A stretch of DNA of 64,000 nt from an uncultured bacterium (GCA_949291375.1 CASEVI010000004.1:39495-103494), one strand, 5' to 3'; shown: positions 42,394 through 64,000, counted from the stretch's first letter. The notes: generated by a model not told the origin, from the sequence alone. A program made the numbers and translations.

Positions 42394-43182
42394 TTATTTA
42401 TAATTATTATTAACTAATCCAGTACCAATAAATGGAATCTTTCTAAAGTCATCAGGATATTTCCTTATAATATAATCAATATAATTGCCAAAAGCTAACG
42501 CTAAAGAATAATAACCTAAAGGATTTGGATGAAATCCCATAGCAATTTTATTTCTAGCCTCTTCATCATATAGAAAAAGATATTCTGTAAAATCAATCAA
42601 ATAAGTATAAGTAAAAAGTTTGACAACTTTTTTCATCTCTTCTCTAACTTCTCTTACTACTTTTGTTCTTTCTGGAGACAAATTGTCAATCTGGAGTGAT
42701 GTTAAAAAAATTCTCGAATCAGGTTCAATTAATTTTAATTTAGATATTACTTTTCCAAGATAACCAAAATAAGTGTCATTGTTTTTTGAAGAATCTTTTA
42801 TATTTATATCATCAATTGACCCAACCTTTTGATTATATACAAACAAATCATTATTACCTAAAAAAATAATATAGGCTTGTTCTTTTTTCCAAAAATTATT
42901 TTTATCAGCCCAAGTTTCATAAAACTCTTTGAATGTCATTCCACCGCGAGAAAAATTATCATATTTAGTTCCTGTAATTCTTTCAAGAATAGAAGGCCAG
43001 GAATATTCGTACATATCGTGATAAGTTATTTCACCTTTATCATTTGTTGATTCAAACTCACCACTGCTCAAAGAATCACCTATAACACCTATTTTTTTAA
43101 AAATAGAAGCGAATCCACAATTATCTTTAATTATATCAAGTGGTTTTTCTCCTTCTTGAAGTTCAAATATTTTTTTCATCAT
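42394..43182 (-). CDS. Cytoplasmic GDSL/SGNH-family esterase/lipase.
   Basis: GDSL motif VIGDSLSSG near the N-terminus, a GNND block and a C-terminal GFHPN (the DxxH region). There is no signal peptide. The start overlaps the upstream lipoprotein gene stop, which suggests translational coupling. Confidence 0.7.
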   Translation of the reverse strand: MMKKIFELQEGEKPLDIIKDNCGFASIFKKIGVIGDSLSSGEFESTNDKGEITYHDMYEYSWPSILERITGTKYDNFSRGGMTFKEFYETWADKNNFWKKEQAYIIFLGNNDLFVYNQKVGSIDDINIKDSSKNNDTYFGYLGKVISKLKLIEPDSRIFLTSLQIDNLSPERTKVVREVREEMKKVVKLFTYTYLIDFTEYLFLYDEEARNKIAMGFHPNPLGYYSLALAFGNYIDYIIRKYPDDFRKIPFIGTGLVNNNYK

Positions 43183-47094: not shown

Positions 47095-47117
47095 TTTTAA
47101 ATTCCTCCATTAAGTTT

Positions 47118-48728
47118 TTATTTAAATATCGCTATAGAATAAGGTGGTAAAATTATCGAACCATCTTTTAATTCACCGATAAATTTTACATTGTCAACAA
47201 CCAGTTGACCAACAACTTTTTTGTTGTTTATATCGCTCGTCGTAAGAATAATATTATCATTTTCTTTAAAATTTATAGCGATATCAATTTTTTCGTTAAG
47301 ATAATCTTTAGAAATTATCAATAATCCTTTATCTTTATCAGCAGTTAATAAAGATAATTTGCCTCTAGAAATTTCAGGAAATTTATTTCTTAAATAATTT
47401 GCTTTCTTATAATAATTCAAAATAGAATTTTCGTTTTCTAAATTCTCTTTAACAGTTCCATAAGGATAATCAACTGTAGTAACACCGCTTAATTGTACTG
47501 TGTCGTATTTTCCATCTTCTCCCCATTTAACCGATGTTCTAACGTTTTGATCCGGAGGATTATTACCTGACATTCCAACTTCATCTCCGTAATATGTAAA
47601 TGTAGTTCCATTAGTAATTGATAATAAACCAAAATAGAATTTTGTTTTTTCTGGAGAAGTTACTCTAACATATCTAGACATATCATGGTTATCAATGAAT
47701 GGTGCTGGAATCCCTTTATCAGAAGTTTTATTAATTTTTTCTAATCCTTCATAGAATGATTCTACCATCCTACCATCCATATTTGTTGAATTAATATATA
47801 AGCCATCAGGATATGCAGTTGAAGCAGGAAAGTAGAAGAAAGAATCGATGCCTGATTCATAATATCGTTGAATAATTTCAGCAGAACTCCAAGCCTCTCC
47901 AACAATATATGCTTTTGGATTTAAAGATTTTACATAATTATTAATCCATTTTAATGTTTCAATATTCTTTTCTGTATTATTAATAAAATAATACAAAACA
48001 GCATCTAATCTAAATCCATCAACCCCGAGATCAAGATAATATTTCATAATCTTTTCGAAATCTTCTCGAACGTATTCTGAATCTAAATTAAATTCAGGCA
48101 TCTCACTAGAAAAATTACCTTCATAATAAAAATTGTAATAAGGATTTTTATATAAAGTTTTTCCACGAGAATTAGGATCTTCTTTATTCTCAAAAAACGA
48201 ATAATAATCAACGTATCTTTTTTCGTTTTCATTTAACTCTTTATTATTAATAAATTTATTATAAGCATCACTTGCTAATTTAAATTCCTTTGTAAATAAA
48301 GAAGAATGATTAATTACAAGATCTAAAATAACCTTAATATTTTTTTCATGTGCTTTGTTAATAAGATTTTTTAAGTCATCAATATCACCATAAGATTTGT
48401 CGATTTCATAATAGTTTGAAACGTCATACTTGTGATAAGAAGGCGATGTGTTAATTGGCATCAGCCAAATCCCTGAGTATCCTAAATCAGATAAATAATC
48501 TAACTTTTCGGTAACGCCATTCAAATCACCAATCCCATCGCCATTAGAATCAGCGAATGAGCGAACAAAGATTTCATAATAATTTCTATAATTATCATCT
48601 ACGGGAATAACTTCTTCTGCTGTTTCGTCAATTTTATAGCCATATGTCTCATCATAAAATCTTTTTTGACCACATGAAGCAAAAAGTACTGGTAAAACAA
48701 GGAAAATTAATAATCTCTTTTTTATCAT
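47118..48728 (-). CDS. Extracellular GH13 alpha-amylase-family lipoprotein (amylase, pullulanase or maltodextrinase type).
   Basis: Lipobox LFASC. GH13 motifs GVDGFRLDAV, GEAW and FIDNHD are present. The 536-aa length fits. Confidence 0.8.
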   Translation of the reverse strand: MIKKRLLIFLVLPVLFASCGQKRFYDETYGYKIDETAEEVIPVDDNYRNYYEIFVRSFADSNGDGIGDLNGVTEKLDYLSDLGYSGIWLMPINTSPSYHKYDVSNYYEIDKSYGDIDDLKNLINKAHEKNIKVILDLVINHSSLFTKEFKLASDAYNKFINNKELNENEKRYVDYYSFFENKEDPNSRGKTLYKNPYYNFYYEGNFSSEMPEFNLDSEYVREDFEKIMKYYLDLGVDGFRLDAVLYYFINNTEKNIETLKWINNYVKSLNPKAYIVGEAWSSAEIIQRYYESGIDSFFYFPASTAYPDGLYINSTNMDGRMVESFYEGLEKINKTSDKGIPAPFIDNHDMSRYVRVTSPEKTKFYFGLLSITNGTTFTYYGDEVGMSGNNPPDQNVRTSVKWGEDGKYDTVQLSGVTTVDYPYGTVKENLENENSILNYYKKANYLRNKFPEISRGKLSLLTADKDKGLLIISKDYLNEKIDIAINFKENDNIILTTSDINNKKVVGQLVVDNVKFIGELKDGSIILPPYSIAIFK

Positions 48729-48733
48729 TTTTA

Positions 48734-49594
48734 TTAGCCTTTAACAGCTCCTCCTGTTACACCTTCAACATAATATCTTTGTAACCAGAAGAATAAAGCC
48801 ATAATACCTATGGAAACAAAAACACCACCGGCACAAAATTGAGGAAAATATTGAATGTCTCTTCCTTTAGACAACATTTGTTGTAAACCAACAGCAACAT
48901 TAAACAATTCTTGCTTACCTTGCGCAAGATAAGATGCCATCATATAATCTCCCCATGGAGCAGTAAAACTCATCAATATTGTATAAACAACAATAGGTTT
49001 AGATAATGGCAAAATAACTTTCCAGAAAACAGTGTTTTTATTTGCACCATCAATCATTGCAGCTTCATCTAATGAACGTGGTATAGTATCAAAAAAGCCC
49101 TTTGCAACATAATATCCCATTCCTGCGCCAGCACAATAAACAACGACCAAACCATAAATTGTACCTGATAGGCCAATCATTTGAAGCAAGAAATATGTAA
49201 CAATCATTCCTAAAAATGAAGGGAACATACCAATAACAAGAATAAGTTTCATAAAAGCTTGTCTTGCTCTAAATCTTAATCTTGAAAATGCATAAGCAGT
49301 CATTAATGTAATTATTGTCTGAAGAACAGCTGTTATAATCGCGATAATTAAAGTATTTAAATACCATGTACCGAAAGGATATATTTCATCAGTGAATAAA
49401 TTTATATAATTTTTAAATGTCCAAACTTCAGGGACAACATTCAACGGATCATAACTTTCCGAAAAAGATTGTAAGACTAGATAAACAAAAGGAACAAGCC
49501 AAACAATTGAAAGAACAACCAAAATTATATAAACTAAAGTCTTAGATGTTATATCTTTAATTTTCTTACTGTGATAACGTTCTAATTTAGCCAT
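48734..49594 (-). CDS. malG: Maltodextrin ABC transporter permease, MalG-like.
   Basis: Six TM helices and the EAA motif (LDEAAMIDGANKNTVFWKVILPLSKP). Confidence 0.8.
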   Translation of the reverse strand: MAKLERYHSKKIKDITSKTLVYIILVVLSIVWLVPFVYLVLQSFSESYDPLNVVPEVWTFKNYINLFTDEIYPFGTWYLNTLIIAIITAVLQTIITLMTAYAFSRLRFRARQAFMKLILVIGMFPSFLGMIVTYFLLQMIGLSGTIYGLVVVYCAGAGMGYYVAKGFFDTIPRSLDEAAMIDGANKNTVFWKVILPLSKPIVVYTILMSFTAPWGDYMMASYLAQGKQELFNVAVGLQQMLSKGRDIQYFPQFCAGGVFVSIGIMALFFWLQRYYVEGVTGGAVKG

Positions 49595-51135
49595 TATTGG
49601 AAATCCTCCTCGTTTTTTACAGAATTGCTCTTTCCATAGAATATTAAGGAGAAGAAAGCAACAACAACGAACACTACCATACCAATAACTGATGCTGTAC
49701 CGTAATCTTTAAATACTTCACCCATTGACATTTTGTAAAGCCATGTAATTAAAAGGTCAGATTGTCCGGCTCCAAACACTTGCGCAGTAATCATTTCTCC
49801 GTTAACACTTGAGAAAACAGGTCCACCATTAGATAAAAGATAAATAACATTAAAATTATTAATGTTACCAACAAATTGAGAAATCAAATATGGTGTAGTA
49901 ACAAATAACATATATGGTAATGTTATTTTCATATACATTTTATAAGGACTAGCACCATCAATTTTAGCAGATTCATATAAATCATCTGGAATGTTCATTA
50001 AGATGCCAGTACACATTAACATAGTATATGGTATACCAACCCACATATTAACCAAAATAATAGTAATCTTAACTAAAATACCATCACTTAAAAAACGAAT
50101 ATTTTGAGTAATTAAGCCTAATTCTCTAAGCACTGCATTAACAACGCCAGTATCAGTGTTGAGCATTTTTGACATTAAAAGTAAAGAAACAAATTGTGGA
50201 ACAGCAATGGTTGTAATTAGAATTGTTCTCCATAATTTTTTTAATTTAATGCCTTTTTTATTAATCATAATCGCAACAATCATCCCTAAGAAATAATTAG
50301 TAAATGTTGCAAAAAATGCCCAAATTAATGTCCAAATTAAAATTTGAACGAAAACTAAAGCGAATTGAGTTCCGTTTTGTCCACCGGCTACGCCTAATAA
50401 TTGTTGAAAATTACCTAAGCCAACCCAATCAAATAATTCTTTAGGATTCATATGATTTGAATTGTAATTTGTAAAACCGATTAGAACCATAAAAAATAAA
50501 GGAATAATAGTAAAAATTGCAATTCCTAGTGTAGGGATTGAAAGCATCACTTTATGATAATCTTTACCGACTAAACCATTTAAAGTTTCTTTATCAGATT
50601 TGTGCTTACCAATATATTTTAATTGTTGTAATTCATAAGAATCTCTAATACTTGTATACCAAAGAAATGCTAAAATTAAAATAACAATAATGGAAATGAC
50701 AGAATAAAGCAAAATTTTAAAACTATCATCTTGATACATATATCCAATAAATGGAGCTTCATCAGTTTCATATTGAACAGATGAAACATAACCAAATGTT
50801 GGTAGTTTTGTAAAGTTTGGTACACCAATTAAAACTATAAATATAACAGCAACAATTTCATAAAAAAGATTTAATAATCCTCTTAAAATTTGATGACGCG
50901 TAATTTGTCCTATTCCCATAACTAAAAAATTTAATCTAGTTAATAAATCACCATGAGCAAACCAATGGAACAAATTTATAATCGGATTAAAAATTTTTTT
51001 AAAAAATTCTTTTGTTTTTGAAGGAGTTTTTCTTAAAAAATTCCAAATTCCTATTGGGATACTTTTAAAAAAGTCACCAATCTTATAAAAAAATTTTTCA
51101 GGTTTTGTCAATGAATAATATTCTAAATTCGACAT
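49594..51135 (-). CDS. malF: Maltodextrin ABC transporter permease, MalF-like, with an N-terminal extension.
   Basis: EAA motif YESAKIDGASPYKMYMKITLPYM and multiple TM helices. I prefer the ATG at 51135 (MSNLEYY...), which has a GGAGG Shine-Dalgarno sequence 7 nt upstream. The track start is 51165. Confidence 0.75.
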   Translation of the reverse strand: MSNLEYYSLTKPEKFFYKIGDFFKSIPIGIWNFLRKTPSKTKEFFKKIFNPIINLFHWFAHGDLLTRLNFLVMGIGQITRHQILRGLLNLFYEIVAVIFIVLIGVPNFTKLPTFGYVSSVQYETDEAPFIGYMYQDDSFKILLYSVISIIVILILAFLWYTSIRDSYELQQLKYIGKHKSDKETLNGLVGKDYHKVMLSIPTLGIAIFTIIPLFFMVLIGFTNYNSNHMNPKELFDWVGLGNFQQLLGVAGGQNGTQFALVFVQILIWTLIWAFFATFTNYFLGMIVAIMINKKGIKLKKLWRTILITTIAVPQFVSLLLMSKMLNTDTGVVNAVLRELGLITQNIRFLSDGILVKITIILVNMWVGIPYTMLMCTGILMNIPDDLYESAKIDGASPYKMYMKITLPYMLFVTTPYLISQFVGNINNFNVIYLLSNGGPVFSSVNGEMITAQVFGAGQSDLLITWLYKMSMGEVFKDYGTASVIGMVVFVVVAFFSLIFYGKSNSVKNEEDFQ

Positions 51136-51195
51136 AAAAACCTCCAAAACAAACAAACTACACAAAAAGTGTAGTTTGTCGTTGTTTAATAATTA

Positions 51196-52488
51196 TTATG
51201 AGTTAATAACAGTTTCGTTATAAGTATCAACGGCAGCTTGTAAATTATCAAGTGTAATTGTACCTTCTTTCATACCATTGACTAAAACACCTGGAGCATT
51301 CCATACGTTTCCTGGAACAACTGTTTGAACGTGACACCATTCGCTTTGTTCCGTTAATGTTTGGAAGTTTGCATCATTTTTAATTTTATCTAACTCAGCA
51401 ACCTCAGTATTTGATGGACAAATATTGTATTCATCAAATCTCTTTTCTTGTGCTTCTGGTCCAGAAAGATATTGAGCTAATTCGAATGCAGCTGTCATTC
51501 TATCTGTATCGTTAGCACTTCTAATTGGGTTAACGCCATAAAGTTTAGCACCATTAAAGCAACCTAAATGAGCTGTATCTCCGTCAACTGTAACTGTTGG
51601 CATTGGTGCACATGCATAATTATCACCAAGTTGTGCTTTTGCAGCAGCAATATCCCAAGTTCCGTTAACAGCAATTTTAACATTTCCAGTTCCTGCTAAA
51701 ACATATTCATCAACCCATGTACCTTCACTTTGATGTTGAACAATGTTGTAAATAGCTTTAGCAGCTTTTAATCCTGCTTCACCATTAAAGTCAGCAGTAA
51801 TTTTATCAACTTGGTTATCTTCAGTAAATGTTACATTATAGTCTGCACCAAATGTAAACATAGCACCTTGTCCATAGAAACCTTCTTGTAATTTATATGC
51901 AAATTGAGTATTTGTTTCGGCACATTTTGCAAGAATTCCTTCAACAGAAGCAACGTCTTCCTCTGTAAAGACAGATTTATCATACATTAAATAATAGGTA
52001 TTATCTGCAGTATATGGGAATGCATATAAAGTGTCATTGAAAGTAGCACTATCAAGACCGACTTGATTAGTATTTTCTTCAACATAAGTTTTATAAGTAC
52101 TTCTTAATGCAGCTAAAGCACCTTTAGCAACTAAGCCTTGTGTTTTATCAGCACCAAAAGCATAAACATCTGGTCCTGTTGCCCAGTCAGTAATTTCAGA
52201 GTCGACTTTATCTTCTCCGTGAGCAACTTGTTCAATAACATAAGTATTTGGATCGCCGAGTGATTTTCTATATTCTTTGAAATCTTCGATTAATTCGGCA
52301 TCAAATTCAGCTTTATCAGCTGGACCAGAAAGAACAAGGTTAATTGTTTTTCCTTGAGGAGTTTCACCACCTGGGTTATCTGTTCCCCCCCCTGGGTTAT
52401 CTGTGTTTCCTTTGTCACCACAAGCAACTAAGCCTGCGAGTGAAATGCCTAAAACGGCAATAACACCAAATAATTTTGTTTTTTTCAT
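51196..52488 (-). CDS. malE: Maltodextrin-binding lipoprotein (MalE-like substrate-binding protein) with an N-terminal Gly/Pro-rich tandem-repeat linker.
   Basis: Lipobox LVACG. A family-1 sugar-binding fold. The 7-aa repeat TDNPGG(G) occurs twice, encoded by a 21-nt direct repeat plus a G8 run. Confidence 0.75.
   Translation of the reverse strand: MKKTKLFGVIAVLGISLAGLVACGDKGNTDNPGGGTDNPGGETPQGKTINLVLSGPADKAEFDAELIEDFKEYRKSLGDPNTYVIEQVAHGEDKVDSEITDWATGPDVYAFGADKTQGLVAKGALAALRSTYKTYVEENTNQVGLDSATFNDTLYAFPYTADNTYYLMYDKSVFTEEDVASVEGILAKCAETNTQFAYKLQEGFYGQGAMFTFGADYNVTFTEDNQVDKITADFNGEAGLKAAKAIYNIVQHQSEGTWVDEYVLAGTGNVKIAVNGTWDIAAAKAQLGDNYACAPMPTVTVDGDTAHLGCFNGAKLYGVNPIRSANDTDRMTAAFELAQYLSGPEAQEKRFDEYNICPSNTEVAELDKIKNDANFQTLTEQSEWCHVQTVVPGNVWNAPGVLVNGMKEGTITLDNLQAAVDTYNETVINS
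52370..52404. repeat. Tandem 21-nt repeat (cctgggttatctgt...) with an embedded C8/G8 homopolymer at 52385-52392, inside the malE linker region.
   Basis: Seen directly in the sequence. I found no other G/C run of 8 or more in the window by eye. Confidence 0.6.
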
Positions 52489-52586
52489 ATTATTTTTATT
52501 CCTCCTTAAATATGAATGTAAAAATTATTTTTTAAGTAATTTTATATATTATTAACTCTGTTACGAGCTTAATAACCTAAAATAAA

Positions 52587-54101
52587 TTAATCACCTCTTT
52601 GATAATTATCGTTCCATCTTAATAACATAGATGAAACTTCTTCTTTATTTTTTTCAAAGAGTTTTTTACTAATTCTCCAAGACCAATTTGAAGAACCGAG
52701 TGTTGAAGGGAAATTCATTCTTCCTTCTGCTCCAATTGCAAATAAATCTTGAAGAGGTAATATAGCAGCTTTTGTAGATGAAGCAATATTAAGTTCACAA
52801 ACCTTTAATGTTAATTCTTTATTAGATAAATCTTTAACAAAAGGAATTCTGAATCTCTTACATTCATCTTCCAATATTTCTAAAAACATTTTCTTTTCAT
52901 CTTTAGTTAAATCATCGATAAATTGACGACACGTTTTAGAATCATGAGTTCCGCTATATGAGAAGAAATTGTAAGTATAATTTGATGGCCTCCAAATATT
53001 TGTTTTATCTGGATTATCGAAACATTGAGTTACAATTTTCATTCCTGGATAACCACATTTATTAAAGAATTCAATAAAATCATCGTCTATCATTCCTAAA
53101 TCTTCAGCAACAATTGGATAATCTAATTTATCTTTAAATAAATCAAATCCAGGTCCTTTTACCCATCTTCCATTTTTAGCTGTTGTATCTTTAAATGGAA
53201 TTGAGTAATACCCACTAAATCCTCTAAAGTGATCAATTCTTAAATAATCAAAGAACTTTAATGCGTTATTTATTCTTTCATTCCACCATTTATAATTAGT
53301 TTCTTTATGATATTTCCAATTATATAAAGGATTGCCCCATAATTGACCATCAACTGAGAAACAATCTGGTGGACAACCAGCAACATTAACTGGATAGTGG
53401 TTGATATCTAATTCAAATAGTGAAGGATATTTCCGAACTTCTAATGAATCAAATGCAACATAAATTGGCAAATCGCCCATAATTTTTATCTTATTTTTAT
53501 GAGCATATTCTTTTAATGAATTATATTCATTTAAGAATTCATATTGGGTCCAAATATAAAATAGAATATCATCTTTATTATTTTGAATTAATTCTTTTTC
53601 TAATTCTAATGAGTATGTTTTATATTTGTTATCCCATTCATACCATGGTTTTAAATGATTAATATCTTTTAAAACCATGAATATAGCAAAATCTTTAAAT
53701 TGAGGATTGTTTTTAATAAATTCTTTAAACTCAAGACTAGTTTTATCAAATCTATTAAATGCTTTTCTTAATACTTTTAATCTATTATTGAAAAGTATTC
53801 CGTAATCAACTCTTTCTTCATTATTACCCCAATCAATTGAATTTACTTCTTCTTTTGTTAATAACTTTTTATTAATTAATGTATCTAAATCAATAAAATA
53901 ATAATTTAAACCATAATTTGAAGGAGATTGATAAGGTGAATCTCCAAATGAAGTTACATTAAGTGGTAAGATTTGCCAAATATTGCAATTAGATTTTTTT
54001 AAAAAATCAATAAATTCATAAGCTTCCTTCCCTAAACTCCCAATGCCATATTTTGAAGGGAGGGAAGAAATATGTAATAAAATTCCACTTTCTCTTTCTT
54101 T
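52587..54101 (-). CDS. malQ: 4-alpha-glucanotransferase (amylomaltase, GH77), paralog 1. The track start at 54140 would overlap the cre site; I prefer the ATG at 54101.
   Basis: N-terminus ESGILLHISSLPSKYGIGSLGKEAY... is characteristic of GH77. The protein is about 45% identical to the adjacent paralog. Confidence 0.8.
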   Translation of the reverse strand, partial: KERESGILLHISSLPSKYGIGSLGKEAYEFIDFLKKSNCNIWQILPLNVTSFGDSPYQSPSNYGLNYYFIDLDTLINKKLLTKEEVNSIDWGNNEERVDYGILFNNRLKVLRKAFNRFDKTSLEFKEFIKNNPQFKDFAIFMVLKDINHLKPWYEWDNKYKTYSLELEKELIQNNKDDILFYIWTQYEFLNEYNSLKEYAHKNKIKIMGDLPIYVAFDSLEVRKYPSLFELDINHYPVNVAGCPPDCFSVDGQLWGNPLYNWKYHKETNYKWWNERINNALKFFDYLRIDHFRGFSGYYSIPFKDTTAKNGRWVKGPGFDLFKDKLDYPIVAEDLGMIDDDFIEFFNKCGYPGMKIVTQCFDNPDKTNIWRPSNYTYNFFSYSGTHDSKTCRQFIDDLTKDEKKMFLEILEDECKRFRIPFVKDLSNKELTLKVCELNIASSTKAAILPLQDLFAIGAEGRMNFPSTLGSSNWSWRISKKLFEKNKEEVSSMLLRWNDNYQRGD

Positions 54102-54125
54102 CATAAATAAAATTGCTTCTTTGTT

Positions 54126-54139
54126 TGTAAGCGCTTTCA
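54126..54139. promoter_or_regulatory. Perfect cre site TGAAAGCGCTTACA at the start/5' UTR of malQ paralog 1.
   Basis: It matches TGWAANCGNTNWCA at all positions and overlaps the longest-ORF start codon of a maltodextrin gene. This is the classic position for CcpA repression. Confidence 0.6.
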
Positions 54140-54252
54140 TTATAATTTCAAATTTTTCTTGTGTAAAGAGTTAATTTTTCCCTTAATATTCATTAAATTC
54201 ATAAAAATTGTAAATAATTATTAAAATTTAAATATTTTAATATTGAAATTTA

Positions 54253-54289
54253 CATATAATTAAAAAATATTCGATGGTTATCGAATATT
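54253..54289. terminator. Palindrome AATATTCGAT-ggtt-ATCGAATATT between the two malQ genes; a terminator for malQ2 and/or an operator.
   Basis: A perfect 10-bp inverted repeat with a flanking A/T run, 60 nt downstream of the malQ2 stop. Confidence 0.45.
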
Positions 54290-54349
54290 TTACTAATTTT
54301 ATAAATATATAAAAAATTACCTAAATTATCATTACTTTAATTTTAAACC

Positions 54350-55882
54350 TCAATTTTTATTAAAATCAGTGTTTAAACGTCTATATTTCTCATTTAATGA
54401 AAAAATTTTATTTTTTAAGTCATTATTAAATTCAAATGGTAAAAAACGATATGTCCAGTTATCTTCTAAAAGTGTTGATGGACGATTCATTCTAGACTCT
54501 TTACCTTTAAAAAATAAATCTTGAAAGGTAAAAGAAACATGTTCTGCTTTTGAAGCAAAAATAAGTTCAATAAGTTTAAAAGCTATATCATAATTTGAAA
54601 AAGCATCTTCTAAATATGGCACATTTAATTTTTTGCATTCTTCTTTTATTTTATTTAAAAGTTCTTCTTTTTTTACTTCATTAATTTCATCTAATTTTAC
54701 TTTTATAGGAGTATTATCGTGATTTCCTAAATAAAAATATGTATTTTCATCAATTTCAGAGGGCAAAATTCTTCTAATGTCTTCAACATCATCAAAAAGA
54801 GTAGGAATTAAAGTAATATTATAAGGAATATCGCTATCTTTAATAAAATCTCTTATTTTTAAAGAAAAATTACCTAAACCAGAAGCGATTAAATTATTTT
54901 CTTCTTTAATTAAATTGATAAATTCAATTCCTGGTCCATCCATAAATACTCCTTTTTTAGGATTTTTACTTCTAAAAGGAATCGCATAAACTTCTTTAAA
55001 ACCTCTAAAGTGATTAAGTTTAACACGGTCATAAAGACTTGAAGCACGATAAAGTCTTCTTCTCCACCATTTGTAATTATTAAGTCTCATATATTCCCAA
55101 TCATAAAGAGGATAACCCCATTTTTGACCGCGAGAATTAAAATTATCAGCAGGATAACCAGCAACATAGGTAACTAAATTTCTTTTATCAACCATAAAAA
55201 GTTCAGGATTAAAATACATTTCATCACTATCAAATCCTAAAAAATGAGGAATATCACCGATTATTTCAATATTTTTACTTTTTGCATATTCATGTAATTT
55301 ATTCCATTGTTTAATAAAAATGAATTGTAAAAAAAATTGAAATTCAATTTCTTTGCTATGATGCTTTAAATAATGAACCATTACTTCTTCATCGTAATAT
55401 CTATCTTCTAATGAATAATCAAACCAAGCTTTATTATTGTTATTTAATTTTATCGTTTTGAATAAACAATATTTAAAAATTTGACTATCTTTTTTAAATT
55501 CAAGATATTCTTTATTTTCTAAATCAAATCTTTTAAATGCTTTTTTAAAAACAATATCTTTAGCCAAAGTAACTTTTTCAAAATCTACTTTTCTAGGATT
55601 TTTTCCAAAGTTTAAATTTTGTAAATCACGACTATTTACTAAGCCTTTTTCAATTAAATCATCAATATCAATTAATAAAGGATTTAATCCAAAAGCAGTA
55701 ATAACTTGGAAAGGTGAATTAGAAAATCCTACATCTTCTAAAGGTAAAATTTCCCAATATGAAAATCCACATTCTTTAATATAATCAATAAATTTATATG
55801 TTTCTTTACCTAAACCTCCAATACCATATTTTGATGGTAATGAAGTAATATGCATAATTACACCACTTTCTTTTTGTTTCAT
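54350..55882 (-). CDS. malQ: 4-alpha-glucanotransferase (GH77), paralog 2.
   Basis: N-terminus MKQKESGVIMHITSLPSKYGIGGLGKETY. The 510-aa length fits. Confidence 0.8.
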   Translation of the reverse strand: MKQKESGVIMHITSLPSKYGIGGLGKETYKFIDYIKECGFSYWEILPLEDVGFSNSPFQVITAFGLNPLLIDIDDLIEKGLVNSRDLQNLNFGKNPRKVDFEKVTLAKDIVFKKAFKRFDLENKEYLEFKKDSQIFKYCLFKTIKLNNNNKAWFDYSLEDRYYDEEVMVHYLKHHSKEIEFQFFLQFIFIKQWNKLHEYAKSKNIEIIGDIPHFLGFDSDEMYFNPELFMVDKRNLVTYVAGYPADNFNSRGQKWGYPLYDWEYMRLNNYKWWRRRLYRASSLYDRVKLNHFRGFKEVYAIPFRSKNPKKGVFMDGPGIEFINLIKEENNLIASGLGNFSLKIRDFIKDSDIPYNITLIPTLFDDVEDIRRILPSEIDENTYFYLGNHDNTPIKVKLDEINEVKKEELLNKIKEECKKLNVPYLEDAFSNYDIAFKLIELIFASKAEHVSFTFQDLFFKGKESRMNRPSTLLEDNWTYRFLPFEFNNDLKNKIFSLNEKYRRLNTDFNKN

Positions 55883-56040
55883 GTTTATAATTTTATATTA
55901 AGGAAATATTGTTTTCAAAATATTAAAGTTTTAAAAACGATATTTTTAATTAAGAAATTATACTTATTTTAATAATTTCTTTATAAATAGTGTCAAAAAA
56001 GATATTGTTTTTTTATTTCTTAAATATAAAATATTAGGGT

Positions 56041-57351
56041 ATGAAAAATGAATTAAAAAATAAAATTATATATCAAGTTTTTGTTAGAAACTTTACAAAA
56101 GAAGGTACATTTAATGCCTTAAAAGAAAAATTAGATTATATTAAATCTTTAGGAGTAGATATTCTTTATCTTTTACCTATTTCTCCTATTGGAAAAATAA
56201 ATAGAAAAGGAAGTTTAGGTTCACCATATTCAATTAGTGATTATATGAAAATTAATGAAGAGTTAGGGAATGAAGAAGATTTTATTTCATTAATTAATAA
56301 AACTCATGAAATGGGTATGAAAATCATGATTGATATTGTTTTTAATCACACTTCTAGAGATTCATTTATTTATAAAAACCATAATGAATGGATGTATAAA
56401 AATGAAAAAGGAGAATGTGCAAATAAGGTCGGAGATTGGAGTGATGTTTATGATCTTGATACAAAGAATGATGAATTAATCTCTTATCTTGTTGATGTTA
56501 TTCGTTATTACTCTTCTTTAGGTGTTGATGGATATCGTTTTGATGTTGCTTCTTTAATAGATAAGAAGTTTTATCAAGCATTAAAAACAATGCTTGACAA
56601 AGAATATCCTTCTACTATTTTACTTGCTGAATCTATTCATGCTTCTTTTTCTAATTATGTTAGAAGCATTGGTTTTAATGCTTTAAGTGATGCTGAACTT
56701 TATTCTTTAGGTTTTGATTTATGTTATATGTATAACAGCGTTGAACCATTTGATAAATATATAAAAGAAAAGAATAATCGCTATTTAGATATTTATAAAG
56801 TTTTATTAAATAATGAAGAAGCTTATAATCCTGCTTCTGCTTTAAGAATTAGAGGATTAGAAAATCATGATCAACCTCGTTTAATTGAATTAAGTAAAAA
56901 TAAAAGAGTAATGAGAAATTTGGCTGCTTTCCCAATCTTTATGAAAGGACCTATGTTTATTTATAATGGACTTGAAAGTAAAGCCAATCATCATCCTAGT
57001 TTATTTGATAAAGATTTAATTGATATGAGTATTGATAAAGAATGGTATGATTTTATTATTTCGTTAACTAATTTTAAAAAAGATAAATTAAATTTAGATG
57101 TTTTAACTAGTGAAGTTTTATTAACAAAAGGTGATAATCTTGCAATTATAAATCATTATAAAGATAATTCTTATTCTTATGGTTTATTTAATCTTTCTTC
57201 TTCAGTTAACGGAAGTTTAATTAAAGATGAAAAATTAATTAATGGAGCATATGTTGATTATTTCACTTCTAAAGTTGTTGTTATTGAAAATAATTCAATT
57301 CGTGTTAAAGAACCACTTTTCTTATTTAAAAGTGAAAATATTAATAAATAA
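56041..57351 (+). CDS. Cytoplasmic GH13-family alpha-glucosidase/amylase catalytic-domain protein.
   Basis: GH13 regions DIVFNHTS, GVDGYRFDVAS and LENHDQPR are present. There is no signal peptide. It is the only plus-strand gene in the locus, divergent from malQ2. Confidence 0.7.
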   Translation: MKNELKNKIIYQVFVRNFTKEGTFNALKEKLDYIKSLGVDILYLLPISPIGKINRKGSLGSPYSISDYMKINEELGNEEDFISLINKTHEMGMKIMIDIVFNHTSRDSFIYKNHNEWMYKNEKGECANKVGDWSDVYDLDTKNDELISYLVDVIRYYSSLGVDGYRFDVASLIDKKFYQALKTMLDKEYPSTILLAESIHASFSNYVRSIGFNALSDAELYSLGFDLCYMYNSVEPFDKYIKEKNNRYLDIYKVLLNNEEAYNPASALRIRGLENHDQPRLIELSKNKRVMRNLAAFPIFMKGPMFIYNGLESKANHHPSLFDKDLIDMSIDKEWYDFIISLTNFKKDKLNLDVLTSEVLLTKGDNLAIINHYKDNSYSYGLFNLSSSVNGSLIKDEKLINGAYVDYFTSKVVVIENNSIRVKEPLFLFKSENINK

Positions 57352-57888: not shown

Positions 57889-59052
57889 TTAGAAATCAGT
57901 ATCATTTAAGAATTCAGGAATAATTGAATCCTCTTCTTCTTTTTCTTTATTTGAAGCTTCTTCTTTATTTCTTTCATCAGCTTTAAGTTTAGATTGTTCA
58001 ACACTCTTTTCAAAAAGCATTTGTTGTTGTCTTTCTTTTTCTTCTCTTAATGCTGACAAATCAAGTTTTGTACCTGGATTAACTGAGAAATCAAATTCAG
58101 TATTAAAGTCTCCAGCAATAATAGAAACCATGATTTGATCATCAAGTTGATCATTAACACTAATACCAAATTTTAAATCAAGATTTCCTCCACAACTATA
58201 AACCATATGATCTACACAAGTTTGACAATCTAAAAGAGAAACTCTTGGTCCGCAAGTAATATGACATAATGCTTTTTGAGCTCCATCAATTGATTGTTCG
58301 ATTAATGGACAAGATAAAGCGTTTTCAGCAGCTTCAATAGCATTATTTGCTCCTTGTCCACTACCAAAACCAATTAAAGCAACACCACTATCTTTTAAAG
58401 TAGCTTTAACATCAGCAAAATCAAGGTTAATAAAAGAAGGCATTAAAATTAAATCAGTGACTGTTTTTACACTTTTTGCTAAAACATCATCAGCTAAAGA
58501 GAATGCTTCTCCAACAGGAAGATTACCACTACTCATTAATAATTTATCATTTGAAACAACGATTAATGAATCACAATTTTCTCTTAATTCATTTAATCCT
58601 TGAACACTTGCTTCAACTTTTTTTCTTCCTTCAAAAGTAAATGGACGAGTAACAATAGCAACAGTTAAAGCACCTTCTTCTTTTGCAATTCTAGAAATAA
58701 CAGGTGCAGCACCAGTTCCGGTTCCGCCCCCCATTCCAGCAGCGATAAATACCATATTAGCGCCTCTAACTATTTCACGAATATCTTCACTAGAAGCTTC
58801 AGCAGCTTCTTTTCCAGCAATAGGATCTCCTCCTACTCCAAGTCCACCAGTGACATTTTCTCCTAAAATAATTCTATTTGGAGCTTTTGATAAAGATAAA
58901 GCTTGTTTATCAGTATTTGCGACATAAAACTCGACATTTCTAATGTCTTCATCAATCATTCTATTTACAGAGTTATTTCCAGCTCCTCCAACACCAATAA
59001 CAATAATTCTTGCTACAGGTTCAAAGCCATCTAATTCATGTGCATCAATCAT
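57889..59052 (-). CDS. ftsZ: Cell division protein FtsZ.
   Basis: Tubulin signature GGGTGTGAAPVI. The C-terminal conserved peptide IPEFL is present. Confidence 0.9.
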   Translation of the reverse strand: MIDAHELDGFEPVARIIVIGVGGAGNNSVNRMIDEDIRNVEFYVANTDKQALSLSKAPNRIILGENVTGGLGVGGDPIAGKEAAEASSEDIREIVRGANMVFIAAGMGGGTGTGAAPVISRIAKEEGALTVAIVTRPFTFEGRKKVEASVQGLNELRENCDSLIVVSNDKLLMSSGNLPVGEAFSLADDVLAKSVKTVTDLILMPSFINLDFADVKATLKDSGVALIGFGSGQGANNAIEAAENALSCPLIEQSIDGAQKALCHITCGPRVSLLDCQTCVDHMVYSCGGNLDLKFGISVNDQLDDQIMVSIIAGDFNTEFDFSVNPGTKLDLSALREEKERQQQMLFEKSVEQSKLKADERNKEEASNKEKEEEDSIIPEFLNDTDF

Positions 59053-59106: not shown

Positions 59107-60339
59107 TTATAATTCATCTTCATCTTCTCGATATTCATCAACCTTTCTTTCAATAGGTTTAATATCGATTTTTGTTTCATCTTCTAAAGAACCTTTATAA
59201 ACGGAAGTAAAGGCAATTGCTCCTAAAAGATTAACATCACCAGGTTCTAAAGCACCAATAGAATCGTTAGTAAAGAATTTAATTGGATTAGAAGAATGTA
59301 AACGATTAATAAATTCTTTAAAACCATTAAGTAAAGTTCCGTTTCCTATAAATACTAAAGGAATATCTTCTTTTAAATTTCCATAGTCTTTAAGTAAATA
59401 ATTTATAGAATTTGTAAATAATTTATCCCAGTTATTTAAACATTCATCAACAACTTGAACAAGTTCATTTTTATTATATTTTCTTTTAATTCCATCATCA
59501 CCTAAAACAGATAAAATTGGAGCATTAAATTTAGTTTCTCTTAAATCATGCCCATAAATTATCTTTAATTCTTCAGCTTTATCCATTGAAATTTCAAAAG
59601 AATTAGCAATTGCGTTAGTTATATCGTTTCCTCCATTAGGGAATGAAGTTGAATCATAAAGTCTTCCATTTCCAAAAAAGGAAACAGTTGTATTATCTTT
59701 GTTATAATCAACAAGTAAATATTTATCAAAAGATGACTTATTAATTTCTAAAAGAGAATTTACTCCTAAAGGAGCAATAACTACTCTTTTAATTAAAATT
59801 CCTGCATCAGTAATTGCTTTTTTAAAATTTTCTACCATAACTTTAGGGAGTGTAAAAATATGAGCACTTACTAAAAGTGAGTTTGAAAAATATCCTAAAG
59901 GTGGATCTTTATAAACTCGATTTCCTTCAAGCGAAAAAACATAAGGAATAATATCAACAATTTCATCATTTGGTTCATTAGTTCTTGCTTTTTTAATCAT
60001 GCTTAAAGCATTAGCAATATCAATTTTAGCAATTCTTCCATCACTAGAAATTGTATTAGTAGTTTTTTCATTTGAAAAAACTTTAAGACCAAAAGGAGGA
60101 AGAATTAAAACTACTTCATTAATATCAACTCTTAATCTCTTTTTTGGATCAGAAATTACTTTAATTTGTTTTAAATCTTCACTTAAAGAAGTTAAATCAA
60201 AAACGTCTCCATCTTTATTAGAGACTCTTAAAGGATATGTTCTTTTATAAAGAACATTTATTTTATTATCATATAAATAACCGATTAATAATTTAAAAGA
60301 TGTATTTTTTATTTCTACGGCCGCAACTGTTATATCCAT
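59107..60339 (-). CDS. ftsA: Cell division protein FtsA (actin-like). The C-terminus is acidic (...EYREDEDEL) and I see no obvious amphipathic membrane-targeting helix.
   Basis: Actin/Hsp70-fold SHS2 architecture. It lies immediately upstream of ftsZ. I prefer the ATG at 60339 (MDITVAAV...) over the track's TTG at 60378. Confidence 0.8.
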   Translation of the reverse strand: MDITVAAVEIKNTSFKLLIGYLYDNKINVLYKRTYPLRVSNKDGDVFDLTSLSEDLKQIKVISDPKKRLRVDINEVVLILPPFGLKVFSNEKTTNTISSDGRIAKIDIANALSMIKKARTNEPNDEIVDIIPYVFSLEGNRVYKDPPLGYFSNSLLVSAHIFTLPKVMVENFKKAITDAGILIKRVVIAPLGVNSLLEINKSSFDKYLLVDYNKDNTTVSFFGNGRLYDSTSFPNGGNDITNAIANSFEISMDKAEELKIIYGHDLRETKFNAPILSVLGDDGIKRKYNKNELVQVVDECLNNWDKLFTNSINYLLKDYGNLKEDIPLVFIGNGTLLNGFKEFINRLHSSNPIKFFTNDSIGALEPGDVNLLGAIAFTSVYKGSLEDETKIDIKPIERKVDEYREDEDEL

Positions 60340-60412
60340 ACTGCTTATAATTTTAATATTAAAATATATAAAATACAATTAATAATATATATATTATTAA
60401 TAGGGAATATGT

Positions 60413-62329
60413 CTAATTTTCTTTTAAAATTGGAATATTATCACCTGATAAATACCATTGATTTTTAAAATAACTATCCCCACTTTTAAAAGAATAAATA
60501 TCACTGCTATTTATAGGTAATTTATTGCTTTCAAAATATAAATTCATATTATCATTAAAATAAAATGAATAATCATTTAATCCGCTTATTCCATCTTTTA
60601 AAATAACGAATTCGATAGATATATTTCCGCATATTGCATATTTATCAATATTAGTTATTGAAGAAGGTAAAACAATACCTTTTAAAGAATTATTAATTAA
60701 ATTAATTGAATAAAATGAAATTTCTTTTAAAGACGAAGGGAAGATATAAATGTTTATATCTTTTAAAGGTATAAATGTATAAAGTATTTTTCTACCCTTT
60801 GAATATAAAGAATTATCAAAAACTTCAAAATAGTTATTATTATCATCTAAATAAATATTTAAATAAGAATAAGATAATGATGAATAAGAAATAATATTTC
60901 CATCTATTTCTTTTAAAAATAAAGGTAAATATAGCTCTTTTAATCTAGATAAATCATAAAAAGCATTTTCTTCTATTTTTAAAATATTGTTGTTTAAAGT
61001 TAATTTTTCGATATTAGAAAGTTTGAAAAATGAATATGATTTTATTATTTTCAAAGAATTCGCTCCATTAAAATCTATATTTTTAATAGTTGAAGAATAA
61101 TTAAATGAATAAGAAGAAATTACTTCAACACCTTGTCTTATTTTATAAACATTTTTAATATTTAAAAAAGCATAATAAAGTATTTTTTCATCCAATGAAA
61201 AAATACTATTATCAATAATTTTATATTTACTATTGCTATTATTTTCATTATCAAATTTAATAGTTGTTAATGAAGGAGTATTAATTAAAAACCCTTCTTC
61301 AATAGTTTCAATATTACTATTTAAAGTTAATGTTTTTAAAGAAGATAAATTATAAAAAGCGTTAGTTTCAATATAATAAATATTTTCAGATAAAGTTATT
61401 GATTCAATAAGAGAATTATTTGCAAAACAATAAGACTCAATAACGCTCACCTTTTTATCATTAACTATTGAAGGAATAGTAATATTTTTATTTTTTCCTT
61501 TATAAGAAATTAAATGATAACCATCTTCATTTAAAGTAAAAATGAAATTTGAAAGTTCTTCTTCATTAAAAGTATGGTTATCATATTTATCGTTTAACTC
61601 ATCATCAGAAGGTTTGTTATTTTCTCCATCATCCTTTATAGGTTTATCATCGTTATTATTTTCTTCATCTTTATTATCATCATCAACTATTAACTGATCA
61701 TTAGAACTATTTTTAACTGTTGGGATAATTATTGCTAATAAAGAAATTGCTAAAATTAAATTTATAACAACAGAAAGCGATAAAATTAAATTTAAATTTT
61801 TACTTTTTAAAAAGTTTCTTTTATTATCATTCTTTTTATTATTAAGTTCATTAACAATGATTTCAGTTTGATTTAACCCAAAATAAAAATAATCAATTTT
61901 TAAATTAAAAAATGTAGCTAATTTTAAAAATTCATCATAGGTAGGTAAACTTTTACCAGTTTCAATATTTGAATATCTTGATGATGAAATATTAATTTCT
62001 TCAATTAAAGTCTGCTGTTTTATATGCAAATCATTTCTAATGTTTTTTAAATTAAATGTAAATTTTGTATCATCAAAATCATATTTTTCTGCTAACCTAT
62101 TTTCGTAAGAATTAATTTTATAAAAATAACTACTAATATCGATTTTTAAAATTTTGCATAACTTACCTATTAAGTCAAAACTAACAACACATTCATCTTT
62201 TTCATATTTTGAAATAGTTTGCGGAGTAACATTTAAAAAAGAAGCTAAATCAGTTTGCAAAAGATTTAATTCGCTTCTTCTTTTTTTAATAAATTCACCA
62301 TATGTTAAATTTATTTCTTTTTTATTCAT
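60413..62329 (-). CDS. Membrane protein with two tandem N-terminal XRE-type HTH domains, one TM helix, an Asp/Asn/Glu-rich stalk and a C-terminal BspA-type leucine-rich-repeat ectodomain.
   Basis: HTH_3-like segments span about aa 9-65 and 95-150 (LQTDLASFLNVTPQTISKYE; LHIKQQTLIEEINISSSRYSNIETGK). The TM helix is LILSLSVVINLILAISLLAIIIPTV. The ectodomain repeats resemble BspA/LRR_5 repeats (IPSxV..I...AF..C..L..I.L). Confidence 0.7.
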   Translation of the reverse strand: MNKKEINLTYGEFIKKRRSELNLLQTDLASFLNVTPQTISKYEKDECVVSFDLIGKLCKILKIDISSYFYKINSYENRLAEKYDFDDTKFTFNLKNIRNDLHIKQQTLIEEINISSSRYSNIETGKSLPTYDEFLKLATFFNLKIDYFYFGLNQTEIIVNELNNKKNDNKRNFLKSKNLNLILSLSVVINLILAISLLAIIIPTVKNSSNDQLIVDDDNKDEENNNDDKPIKDDGENNKPSDDELNDKYDNHTFNEEELSNFIFTLNEDGYHLISYKGKNKNITIPSIVNDKKVSVIESYCFANNSLIESITLSENIYYIETNAFYNLSSLKTLTLNSNIETIEEGFLINTPSLTTIKFDNENNSNSKYKIIDNSIFSLDEKILYYAFLNIKNVYKIRQGVEVISSYSFNYSSTIKNIDFNGANSLKIIKSYSFFKLSNIEKLTLNNNILKIEENAFYDLSRLKELYLPLFLKEIDGNIISYSSLSYSYLNIYLDDNNNYFEVFDNSLYSKGRKILYTFIPLKDINIYIFPSSLKEISFYSINLINNSLKGIVLPSSITNIDKYAICGNISIEFVILKDGISGLNDYSFYFNDNMNLYFESNKLPINSSDIYSFKSGDSYFKNQWYLSGDNIPILKEN

Positions 62330-62336
62330 ACAAAAC

Positions 62337-64000
62337 TTAAATTAATGGTTTAGGAAAACCATTTACATATTCCCAATCATCGCAATAATAAACTTTTTGA
62401 TTTGCATTTTCTCGATTAAAAAAAGTTAAACTACTATTAGGAGGTAACTTTTCACATTCAAAATAAACAGAACTATTTTCACAATTAACTATCGATTGTC
62501 TTTGCAATCCTTTAGCACCATTTAAAAAGATAATTCCTTTTAACATTGGATTATTAAAAATTCCATCTTCGCTTAAAAATTCTAAAGTAGAAGGTAAAAC
62601 AATATATTCACATTCATCAAAAATAAAATTTATTGCGAGTTTTAATATTTTTTTAACTCCTTCTTTAATATGAACGATTTGATTTAATGAAGAATTTTTT
62701 AAAGAATAAAGAATCTTTCCATCTTTTGAATATAAAGAGCCGTCAATTTCTTTAAAATACTCATTATCTTCATCAACTTTATAACCGCCGAAATGATAGC
62801 AAGAAATAATAGGAGAATTATTAATTTTATTTATATTTTTTGGTATATAAAATTCTTTTAAATTATTCGAACCACAAATTACTCTTTCTTTTAATTCGGT
62901 TATTATATTGTTTAAATGTAGTTTTTCGAGATTATAGCAATCCATAATTGCTAAAGTTTCAATATTTTTAACACTATCTGGTAAATAAATTTCTTTTAAA
63001 TTATTGTTTCCTACAAAAGCATGAGTTTTTATAGTTTCAATTCCTTCAGGAACATAATAAATTGAAACTTCTTCTCTTTTTTCTAAACAAAGTATTAAAT
63101 TTTTACCATCATTAGAGCAAATGGAATTATTAATAAAAGTAAAATTTTCATTACCGTTAGGGAAAACTACTTCTTTTAAATTTGGATTTGTATGAAAAGC
63201 TTCCTCATCTATTCTTACTAGTGTTGAAGGCAATGATAAATATTCTAAATTTGAACATACTCCGAAAGCATTTTTTCCAATTTCAACTAAACCTTCTTCA
63301 ATAATAATCTTTTTACATGATAAAAATGATGAATTTGAGCTATGTTCAATTTTTTTGACCATATAAGAACCTACTTTTCCTGGAATTGTTATTGTTTCGT
63401 CATCTTTTTTAAATCCACTAATAGTTATTTCTTTTTTCGATGAAATACGGAAATAAAACTTTTTAGCTAACTCATCTAAAGCTTCTTGATCTATTTTATC
63501 TTCTTCACTATCCTCATCGTCTTCTAAAGGTTTATCATCTTCATCTATGCTTGGTTTATCATCGATTGATGGTTTATTATTATCGTTATTATTATCATTT
63601 TCTTCTTTATCACCGCTTGGATTAGATGGATTTTTGTTATCTTCTTCATCATTATTCATATCATCATTAATTTGACTATTATTAGAAGAAGATAAAATTA
63701 ATGGTAAAGAAATTGAACTAGTTAAAACAAAAATAAAAAGTAAAAGAATAACTGATAAAACTTTTTTATTTTTAAATATATCTTTAAAATCGTTTTTACT
63801 TATTTTAAATTCTTCGATTCTTTTTTTATTATTTATTTTATTTTCTTTATCTTTAATATATAAATTTTCTTCAGTTTCATCATATCCATAATAAAATGTT
63901 AGATAATCGAGATTATATAAATCAGCAATCACTTTAAATTCTTCAATAGTAGGTAATGAACCGTTTCTTTCAAAAGAAGATAATCTATTTTTATTAATAT
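62337..64000 (-). CDS. Paralog of the preceding gene with the same HTH_XRE - TM - acidic stalk - BspA-type LRR architecture. It is 5'-truncated by the window edge.
   Basis: I translated through 64000. The frame continues upstream of the track's ATG at 63932 (...NKNRLSSFERNGSLPTIEEFKVIADLYNLDY...), which is an HTH_XRE-like segment. The TM helix is VLSVILLLFIFVLTSSISLPLIL. The ectodomain has the same repeat type. Confidence 0.65.
   Translation of the reverse strand, partial: INKNRLSSFERNGSLPTIEEFKVIADLYNLDYLTFYYGYDETEENLYIKDKENKINNKKRIEEFKISKNDFKDIFKNKKVLSVILLLFIFVLTSSISLPLILSSSNNSQINDDMNNDEEDNKNPSNPSGDKEENDNNNDNNKPSIDDKPSIDEDDKPLEDDEDSEEDKIDQEALDELAKKFYFRISSKKEITISGFKKDDETITIPGKVGSYMVKKIEHSSNSSFLSCKKIIIEEGLVEIGKNAFGVCSNLEYLSLPSTLVRIDEEAFHTNPNLKEVVFPNGNENFTFINNSICSNDGKNLILCLEKREEVSIYYVPEGIETIKTHAFVGNNNLKEIYLPDSVKNIETLAIMDCYNLEKLHLNNIITELKERVICGSNNLKEFYIPKNINKINNSPIISCYHFGGYKVDEDNEYFKEIDGSLYSKDGKILYSLKNSSLNQIVHIKEGVKKILKLAINFIFDECEYIVLPSTLEFLSEDGIFNNPMLKGIIFLNGAKGLQRQSIVNCENSSVYFECEKLPPNSSLTFFNRENANQKVYYCDDWEYVNGFPKPLI

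Follow-up and report, generated by a model that had tools for sequence, protein, structure and literature searches.

Tandem HTH_3-transmembrane-LRR_5 paralogs on an accessory island beside ftsA in uncultured Bacilli, predicted as membrane-tethered regulators

We analyzed a 64,000-nucleotide stretch of DNA from an uncultured bacterium (GCA_949291375.1 CASEVI010000004.1:39495-103494), referred to below as the window, and focused on two adjacent genes, paralogs A and B, which precede ftsA and ftsZ. The encoded proteins combine helix-turn-helix (HTH) domains of the HTH_3 (XRE) family, one transmembrane (TM) helix, an acidic stalk and a leucine-rich repeat (LRR) ectodomain of the BspA type (LRR_5). 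As stated in a first-pass annotation made from the sequence, the pair is placed directly 5′ of ftsA on the same strand. A gap of 73 nt separates the stop codon of B (60413-60415) from the ATG of ftsA (60339). No hairpin (fold z = 0.16) and no terminator-like site was found in this gap; hairpins were tested by folding, because a simple terminator scan missed those with long loops.

Architecture of paralogs A and B

The window contains all of B and part of A. The in-frame translation of A is open to base 63998 with no stop, and its N-terminal 111 amino acids (aa), including the first HTH domain (HTH1), fall past the window end. Full-length A was read from metagenome contigs whose B is identical to that of the window (664 aa at L001:7999-9993; L numbers denote loci on such contigs and on those of relatives), and showed 100% identity to the part of A within the window. 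Pfam analysis detected two HTH_3 domains and LRR_5 both in B (E 2.4e-20 and 7.1e-27) and in full-length A (E 5e-21 and 8.5e-23). The HTH_3 match anticipated at first pass was thus found in both proteins, which by profile similarity are members of the HTH_3 family. The earlier description of tandem HTH-TM-acidic stalk-BspA-LRR paralogs was borne out by Pfam and hydropathy; its count of one or two HTH domains was not, as both proteins have two. A and B share 32% identity across their full length. HTH1 of B aligns to the controller protein C.BclI, and the nearest solved sequences are C.BclI and ImmR-type Xre proteins.

Each protein has one hydrophobic segment, which spans aa ~180-203 of B and aa ~189-212 of A. 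The net charge of the TM flanks in B and A is +4 and +5 on the N-terminal side, and −7 and −5 on the C-terminal side. By the positive-inside rule applied to these charges, the HTH modules are predicted to face the cytoplasm and the LRR to face outside, so the N-in/C-out topology predicted earlier holds. We searched A and B for a signal peptide or lipobox and found neither; their first hydrophobic segment appears at aa ~180-190, after the two HTH domains. In other LRR_5 homologs, the first hydrophobic segment is at aa 1-12, and nearly all the LRR_5 homologs retrieved, including those from Anaeroplasmataceae and Bacilli metagenome-assembled genomes (MAGs), have a signal peptide or lipobox. Judged by these features, A and B are not classical secreted BspA-type proteins, and a plain secreted BspA adhesin, the contrary case named at first pass, does not describe them. 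A and B are intact paralogous type-II (N-in/C-out) single-pass membrane proteins.

The stalk of B consists of 58 aa, including 13 D, 7 E and 12 N (net charge −14), and that of A consists of 78 aa with a net charge of −22. In the AlphaFold2 model of B, aa ~255-600 form a solenoid with a confidence score (pLDDT) of ~90. The top matches of B in a Foldseek search against the PDB were PcpA (4cp6), 4gt6, 4h09 and 4fs7. The ectodomain is thus a BspA-type LRR (LRR_5, PF13306) both by profile match and by its modeled solenoid fold.

To describe selection on the pair, we computed the ratio of nonsynonymous to synonymous divergence (dN/dS) against the orthologs in L006, a second species-level MAG. Whole-gene dN/dS was 0.15 for B and 0.13 for A; the values for ftsA and ftsZ were 0.02 and 0.01. 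The HTH domains of A and B gave 0.05-0.21 (0.08 for HTH1 and 0.05 for HTH2 of B), the LRR 0.13-0.18 and the TM helix 0.00, the TM helix of B being 100% conserved. The least constrained segment was the stalk of B (0.43). Between A and B, the best-conserved segment is HTH1 (52%), and the LRR shows 31%. These ratios indicate that A and B are both functional and under purifying selection. Purifying selection together with HTH1 conservation suggests that the cytoplasmic module serves a function and has not decayed into a remnant. Substitutions in the strands of the LRR beta-face were depleted (9 observed vs 16.3 expected, p = 0.016), so this surface gave no indication of diversifying selection.

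Table 1 Features of the ftsA locus, the island genes and the small gene in the ftsL slot. Positions without a locus prefix are those of the window.
Feature	Position	Strand	Description
ftsZ	57889..59052	(-)	387 aa; TIGR00065, 370 bits
ftsA	59107..60339	(-)	410 aa; outside the island; Pfam FtsA and SHS2_FTSA
Conserved ftsA upstream region	60340..60401	(-)	62 nt; presumed promoter/leader, retained from the ancestral arrangement
Right island junction	60402..60412	(-)	3′ of the B stop codon and 5′ of the conserved ftsA upstream region
Paralog B	60413..62329	(-)	complete open reading frame, 638 aa
B LRR_5 ectodomain, BspA/PcpA type	60416..61543	(-)	aa 263-638; Pfam, AlphaFold2, Foldseek
B acidic D/E/N-rich stalk	61544..61717	(-)	aa 205-262; predicted disordered; composition, pLDDT <50
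B TM helix, signal anchor	61721..61792	(-)	aa ~180-203; sole 19-residue hydropathy peak (2.74) in the protein
B HTH_3 domain 2	61886..62050	(-)	aa 94-148; predicted cytoplasmic; Pfam HTH_3 profile positions 1-55 of 55
B HTH_3 domain 1	62141..62302	(-)	aa 10-63; predicted cytoplasmic; Pfam HTH_31/HTH_3 stretches
Paralog A	62337..64000	(-)	window part, C-terminal 553 aa: HTH2 end, TM helix, acidic stalk, LRR_5
Island gene 1	L019:10439-12433		polytopic LRR_5 protein, 664 aa; 661-aa version at L023:8000-9985
Island gene 2			AAA_5 ATPase, 442 aa
Island gene 3			496-aa protein
Island gene 4			AAA_5-like protein, 457 aa
Island genes 5-6			transglutaminase-like proteins, 712 and 1090 aa
Island genes 7-9			622-aa membrane protein, LemA, YccF
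Island genes 10-11			A then B; ftsA directly after
ftsL-slot small TM gene	L008:9581-9799; L016:9587-9814; L019:10001-10228; L007:43-267

An accessory island between the small TM gene and ftsA

A scan for FtsA in 185,579 species genomes yielded four loci, all from "uncultured Bacilli" MAGs, and further contigs were obtained by exact-protein look-ups of the FtsA variants in the same 90% cluster. Among the loci examined, the pair was present upstream of ftsA only in the window, L001, L002, L003, L006 and L018. The remaining loci have the gene order pheS-pheT-yceD-mraZ-rsmH-(72-75-aa bitopic protein)-ftsA-ftsZ. These island-free loci comprise L005 and L010-12 (FtsA 98.5% identical; 17 contigs), L007 and L013-15 (FtsA 92%; 17 contigs), L008 (FtsA 91%), and L016 and L017 (6 contigs), whose FtsA is 99.5% identical to that of L006. 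As tested for membership of the division and cell wall (dcw) cluster, the pair has no conserved place beside ftsA, since L005, L007, L008 and L010-L017 lack it there. Both kinds of population can occur together, as sample ERZ17292901 holds an island-bearing (L002) and an island-free (L014) one.

An 11-gene island, with all its genes on one strand, ends with A and B. We assembled the gene order from L019, L006 and L001; L019 is the left flank on the 236,603-bp contig of L006 and was reached by look-up of the 75-aa protein variant on that contig. Scaffold_85 (L023 and L001) has the same structure and carries copies of A and B with 100% identity to those of the window. Record coordinates put ftsA about 19.0 kb from the 75-aa gene (about 18.9 kb by a second estimate). 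The two junctions were placed by aligning both against the island-free L016. The left junction lies just past the 75-aa gene and its terminator (L019-L022, L023), the right one ~10 nt past the B stop codon, and the insertion point falls between ...CTGACTTTTTAATTTTG, at the terminator end, and ATTAATAATATATA..., with which the conserved ftsA upstream region starts. Correspondingly, homology to the island-free relatives begins at ATTAATAATATA..., with none upstream of that point (alignments A1 and A4). As the junctions were seen in many independent assemblies, the contig is not chimeric. The GC content of the island is 23.2% vs 24.5-27% in the flanks, and the 90%-identity clusters of island proteins have members solely from island-bearing contigs.

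Other features of the island are as follows. The protein of island gene 1 has a Cys-rich C-terminus resembling a zinc ribbon, and its LRR shows only a weak relationship to the LRR of B, with 26% identity across 132 aa. The AAA_5 genes and the two transglutaminase-like genes may form a MoxR-like or a defense-like module, either being possible. A perfect 16-nt inverted repeat, AATTAAAGAGATATAA-N17-TTATATCTCTTTAATT, is located between yccF and A (L001:7890-7938). Its arms are identical in L006 and L003 and its loop differs by 2 nt; it may be a candidate operator for A, or simply the yccF terminator. A DDE transposase gene (insertion sequence element) adjoins pheS in one island-free relative only (L008:1910-3373, (-) strand).

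Synonymous divergence (dS) was used to trace the history of the island. For ftsA and ftsZ together, dS was 0.237 between the window and L006, both of which carry the island, and 0.038 between L006 and the island-free L016; pheT and rsmH gave 0.02-0.045 between L016 and L019. Island genes differ between the window and L006 by a dS of 0.17-0.44, which suggests that the island diverged together with its flanks. The outgroups L005, L013/L007 and L008 are island-free. On these sequences, the simplest history would be a single insertion, in the common ancestor of the lineages of the window and L006. Because L016 is far closer to L006 than the window is, its state implies either secondary loss of the island or replacement of the allele by recombination through the flanks. 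The island is an accessory presence/absence polymorphism and dispensable, a near-identical ftsAZ locus works without A and B, and the adjacency of the pair to ftsA is a by-product of the island insertion.

The region directly upstream of ftsA is common to strains with and without the island. Its 62 nt are nearly invariant in six loci, island or no island, although the coding flanks of the clades differ by a dS of 0.2-0.4. In island-free loci, this region lies directly 3′ of a strong terminator hairpin. These hairpins, between the small gene and ftsA, have fold z values of −3.3 to −5.8, flanks with A- and U-runs and clade-specific stems. No Shine-Dalgarno sequence was found in the 62 nt before the ftsA ATG, and the region may act as a promoter whose leader is very short or missing altogether. 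A sigma-70 promoter scan was uninformative at this base composition, giving 50 sites vs 50.8 expected.

FtsA of the window scored 89.6 bits against TIGR01174, below the cut-off, and is thus a diverged FtsA. Its C-terminus, ...KVDEYREDEDEL, is acidic and contains no large hydrophobic residues, which confirms the acidic tail reported at first pass. This tail (...EYREDEDEL or close variants) is alike in all clades, whether the pair is present or absent. A simple hydrophobic-moment scan is compatible with an amphipathic stretch in the tail; the scan is non-discriminating, with a moment of 0.71 vs 0.78 for the E. coli membrane-targeting sequence.

In every relative, the gene in the ftsL slot (mraZ-rsmH-X-ftsA) encodes a conserved bitopic protein of 72-75 aa, in which a basic N-terminus (MQMKDKIYRNNHSKAFYYFKK) and a short acidic tail flank one TM helix. 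Pfam gave no match to this protein. In island-bearing strains this gene is now 19 kb from ftsA. As a membrane partner of the acid-tailed FtsA, the ftsL-slot protein is more plausible than the HTH-LRR pair.

Several features elsewhere in the window were also recorded. Rfam and tRNA scans across the window yielded nothing usable as a taxonomic marker. A T-box leader model matched over its full length 5′ of ileS (window 40850-41070, (-) strand) with 35.7 bits (E 7.6e-6) vs a gathering score of 93; from this match, the ileS leader is probably a diverged, AT-rich T-box missed by the gathering threshold. Between this leader and a GDSL-lipase gene, ~1.3 kb (41070-42394) contain no open reading frame of at least 51 aa. 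A 927-aa open reading frame between recJ and ruvB (16191-18974, (-) strand) had no Pfam match at E <= 1e-5. Directly downstream of ftsZ, a maltodextrin-utilization block (44548-57351) is kept in all relatives; it contains two GH77 4-alpha-glucanotransferase paralogs in tandem, two alpha-amylases and a sugar ABC transporter, together with an ABC ATPase of unusual length (848 aa).

Possible function of the pair and alternative explanations

Proteins with a DNA-binding domain and a TM region in one polypeptide are known as transmembrane transcription regulators (TTRs). We infer that A and B are membrane-tethered one-component transcription regulators whose adjacency to ftsA is accidental, and put the probability of this reading at roughly 60%. 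The membrane-anchored one-component regulator proposed in the first-pass annotation thereby survives, in that A and B fit the operational definition of a TTR. In the mechanism we propose, the LRR domain would bind an external ligand on a host, dietary or microbial surface. Binding would alter the clustering, stability or cleavage of A and B, and this change would shift operator occupancy by the tandem HTH module, which might contact a two-half-site operator as a single chain. Likely targets would be the genes of A and B themselves or other island genes. As the stalk is predicted to be disordered, the signal would pass by ligand-induced clustering, stabilization or proteolytic release and not by a conformational relay. 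A and B would also display an LRR binding surface on the probably wall-less cell.

Some observations weigh against this interpretation. A disordered stalk of 58-78 aa, as modeled, cannot pass on a conformational signal. XRE-type HTH domains can bind proteins as well as DNA, as in RodZ, and DNA binding by the HTH domains of A and B is putative. The N-terminal third of the AlphaFold2 model of B has a pLDDT below 50, a low confidence explained by an alignment of only three sequences. No recurring operator was detected: the 16-nt inverted repeat, considered as an operator, was no more frequent than expected by chance in the window, L001 and L019. Finally, the absence of A and B in relatives refers to the ftsA locus, and island-free genomes might carry distant homologs elsewhere.

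The chief competing explanation is that A and B are adhesins or binding proteins in the first place, with the HTH domains and TM helix serving as an anchor or protein binder and no transcriptional signaling. We regard this as the less probable account, but one to be taken seriously. In structure, the ectodomain matches adhesins and surface proteins best (PcpA, TpLRR and BspA-type proteins of gut bacteria), and proteins displayed on the surface typically have a long acidic spacer that is disordered. The island also encodes a third membrane protein with LRR_5, along with several membrane proteins of other kinds. In some LRR_5 proteins, a different small cytoplasmic domain precedes a TM helix, as in P0191 (zinc ribbon-TM-LRR_5) and P0189. 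However, constraint on the HTH domains equals or exceeds that on the LRR (dN/dS 0.05-0.21), and HTH1 is the segment most conserved between the paralogs. A plain anchor would need no two canonical XRE domains, and simpler anchors are available, since nearly all other LRR_5 homologs use a signal peptide or lipobox. The island has further suggested a defense or exclusion function, in which the LRR domains would be phage-receptor decoys or sensors and the HTH modules would regulate the neighboring ATPases. Two island AAA_5 proteins (L019:12449-13777 and L019:15265-16638) match the PADLOC candidate PDC-M26A (E 1.6e-42 and 1.2e-40), the island is an accessory presence/absence polymorphism, and the HTH modules give matches to defense-associated HTH models. 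These HTH matches are generic, being the only ones given by A and B themselves, and the PDC-M26A match is restricted to the ATPase core (about positions 283-441 of 724). As no relatives were found in phage or plasmid collections and no integrase or transposase was found among the island genes, a defense role appears improbable.

A division role was the possibility raised by the position of the pair: a RodZ-like membrane partner of the acid-tailed FtsA, co-transcribed with ftsAZ, which would tether or regulate the divisome. The same strand, the 73-nt distance with no terminator between B and ftsA, the RodZ-like topology, and an FtsA tail that is acidic and without large hydrophobic residues all agree with it. 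Nevertheless, four FtsA clades and a strain at a dS of 0.038 lack the pair at ftsA and have the same kind of FtsA tail. The pair came within the 19-kb island, ftsA keeps its conserved 62-nt upstream region, which is preceded by a terminator in relatives, and an amphipathic stretch in the FtsA tail is compatible with the hydrophobic-moment scan. The RodZ profiles also speak against it, as HTH_25 stayed below threshold in A and gave no match in B, and DUF4115 was found in neither. Because a dispensable ~19-kb island placed the pair at ftsA, A and B are very unlikely to be division factors, and we consider the FtsA-partner scheme scarcely credible. The first-pass annotation had suggested a functional tie of the pair to ftsA and ftsZ, and itself named absence from the ftsAZ neighborhood in relatives as evidence to the contrary; the pair is absent there and came by island insertion, so that this tie fails. 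Its suggestion of an FtsA membrane partner encoded upstream fails likewise, as the acidic tail is unchanged without the pair and L016 lacks the island at a dS of 0.038 from L006.

Returning to the regulator interpretation, a stronger form of it would make A and B the founders of an uncatalogued class of single-pass TTRs, with a BspA-type LRR sensor and a tandem XRE HTH output. We offer this only tentatively. The BspA-type LRR fold is otherwise known from adhesins and eukaryotic innate-immune receptors. If the founder-class reading were true, a probably wall-less gut bacterium would couple the recognition of surface ligands directly to gene expression. As regulators, A and B would parallel the LRR receptors of eukaryotes, though in logic only, and would offer a handle on surface sensing by gut Bacilli that are uncultured and probably wall-less. 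In practical terms, the chief outcome is a negative one, in that a new FtsA membrane partner or RodZ analogue is unsupported. The comparison also reveals the ancestral neighbor of ftsA, the 72-75-aa bitopic ftsL-slot protein, as a better candidate for contact between FtsA and the membrane.

Comparison with known systems

RodZ (HTH_25-TM-DUF4115) has the same topology as A and B, with an XRE-like HTH in the cytoplasm at the N-terminal end, a single TM helix and a C-terminal domain outside. However, the ectodomain of RodZ is DUF4115, whereas that of A and B is LRR_5, and their genes are accessory and absent from close relatives at this locus. HTH_25 (PF13413) scored 17.6 bits in A vs a cut-off of 24.6 and gave no match in B at E <= 0.01, and DUF4115 (PF13464) matched neither protein. 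By these profile results, A and B were ruled out as RodZ proteins; of the resemblance noted at first pass, the topology stands and the RodZ role does not.

The first-pass annotation had also assumed that the position 5′ of ftsA normally holds ftsQ/divIB-mur genes. This expectation is inapplicable here, because the lineage has a reduced dcw cluster of the mollicute type (mraZ-mraW/rsmH-ftsA-ftsZ). Island-free relatives have the order mraZ-rsmH-(72-75-aa TM protein)-ftsA-ftsZ, which agrees with a description of the reduced mollicute cluster (bioRxiv 10.1101/2025.09.01.673419). In the window strain, by contrast, the island separates the small TM gene from ftsA and so divides the cluster.

BspA/PcpA-type surface proteins have the same LRR_5 solenoid (PcpA, 4cp6; FAEPRAA2165_01021, 4gt6; EUBVEN_01088, 4h09; BACOVA_04585, 4fs7; TpLRR, 6mlx), with Foldseek E values of 5e-10 to 4e-5. 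They start with a signal peptide or lipobox, whereas A and B start with a ~180-aa cytoplasmic tandem-HTH region and a signal anchor. ToxR/TcpP/CadC-type regulators follow the same logic, in which one TM helix links an internal DNA-binding domain to an external sensor domain, and are reported to act from the membrane or under proteolytic control (PMC10269533; PMC11484849; PMC11323476). They use a winged-helix Trans_reg_C domain, in contrast to the tandem HTH_3 of A and B, in which Pfam found no Trans_reg_C match, and their periplasmic domains are unrelated to LRR.

The combination of HTH_3 and LRR_5 was found only in the A and B clusters in the searches run, which have known blind spots. When 1.84 billion representatives were searched exhaustively with a profile, end-to-end matches among the best 150 were limited to P0001 (B) and P0022 (A-type); that list was dominated by giant multi-repeat LRR_5 proteins, so full-architecture relatives below ~440 bits could be missed. 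A stalk-deleted profile search found HTH_3 with LRR_5 only in P0001 and P0002, and missed A-type proteins present in its own query, which makes its absence claims weak. A search with the N-terminal HTH-HTH-TM part of B came back empty, missing B itself, and was uninformative. No relatives were found in a scan of JGI metagenomes, which gave one unrelated high-GC locus with soluble tandem-HTH proteins, and none covering the architecture were found in plasmid and phage collections. As far as seen in these sequences, the architecture appears confined to a narrow lineage of uncultured, low-GC (~26%), code-11 Bacilli.

A and B are also close to TTRs of the XRE/HTH_3 type, of which BcrR of Enterococcus faecalis is an example. 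They likewise have a cytoplasmic HTH_3 and a TM helix in one polypeptide, and differ by the tandem HTH_3 and the long acidic spacer; their DNA binding is putative. Demey et al. 2023 (PMC10269533) define a TTR as a single protein with a DNA-binding domain and at least one TM region, and by sequence A and B fall within this operational definition, their DNA-binding domain being predicted as cytoplasmic. In that survey, HTH_3 occurs in 4,523 of 50,302 TTRs, as the fourth most frequent DNA-binding domain, and the single-pass form is the commonest (PMC10269533). No LRR family (LRR_5, LRR_8 or any other) appears in its complete table of non-DNA-binding domains of the 50,302 TTRs, which is listed down to single occurrences (PMC10269533). 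A and B thus represent a new ectodomain type within the XRE-type transmembrane regulators and a modestly novel domain combination. If they are regulators, an LRR-type ectodomain joins the repertoire of bacterial one-component membrane sensors.

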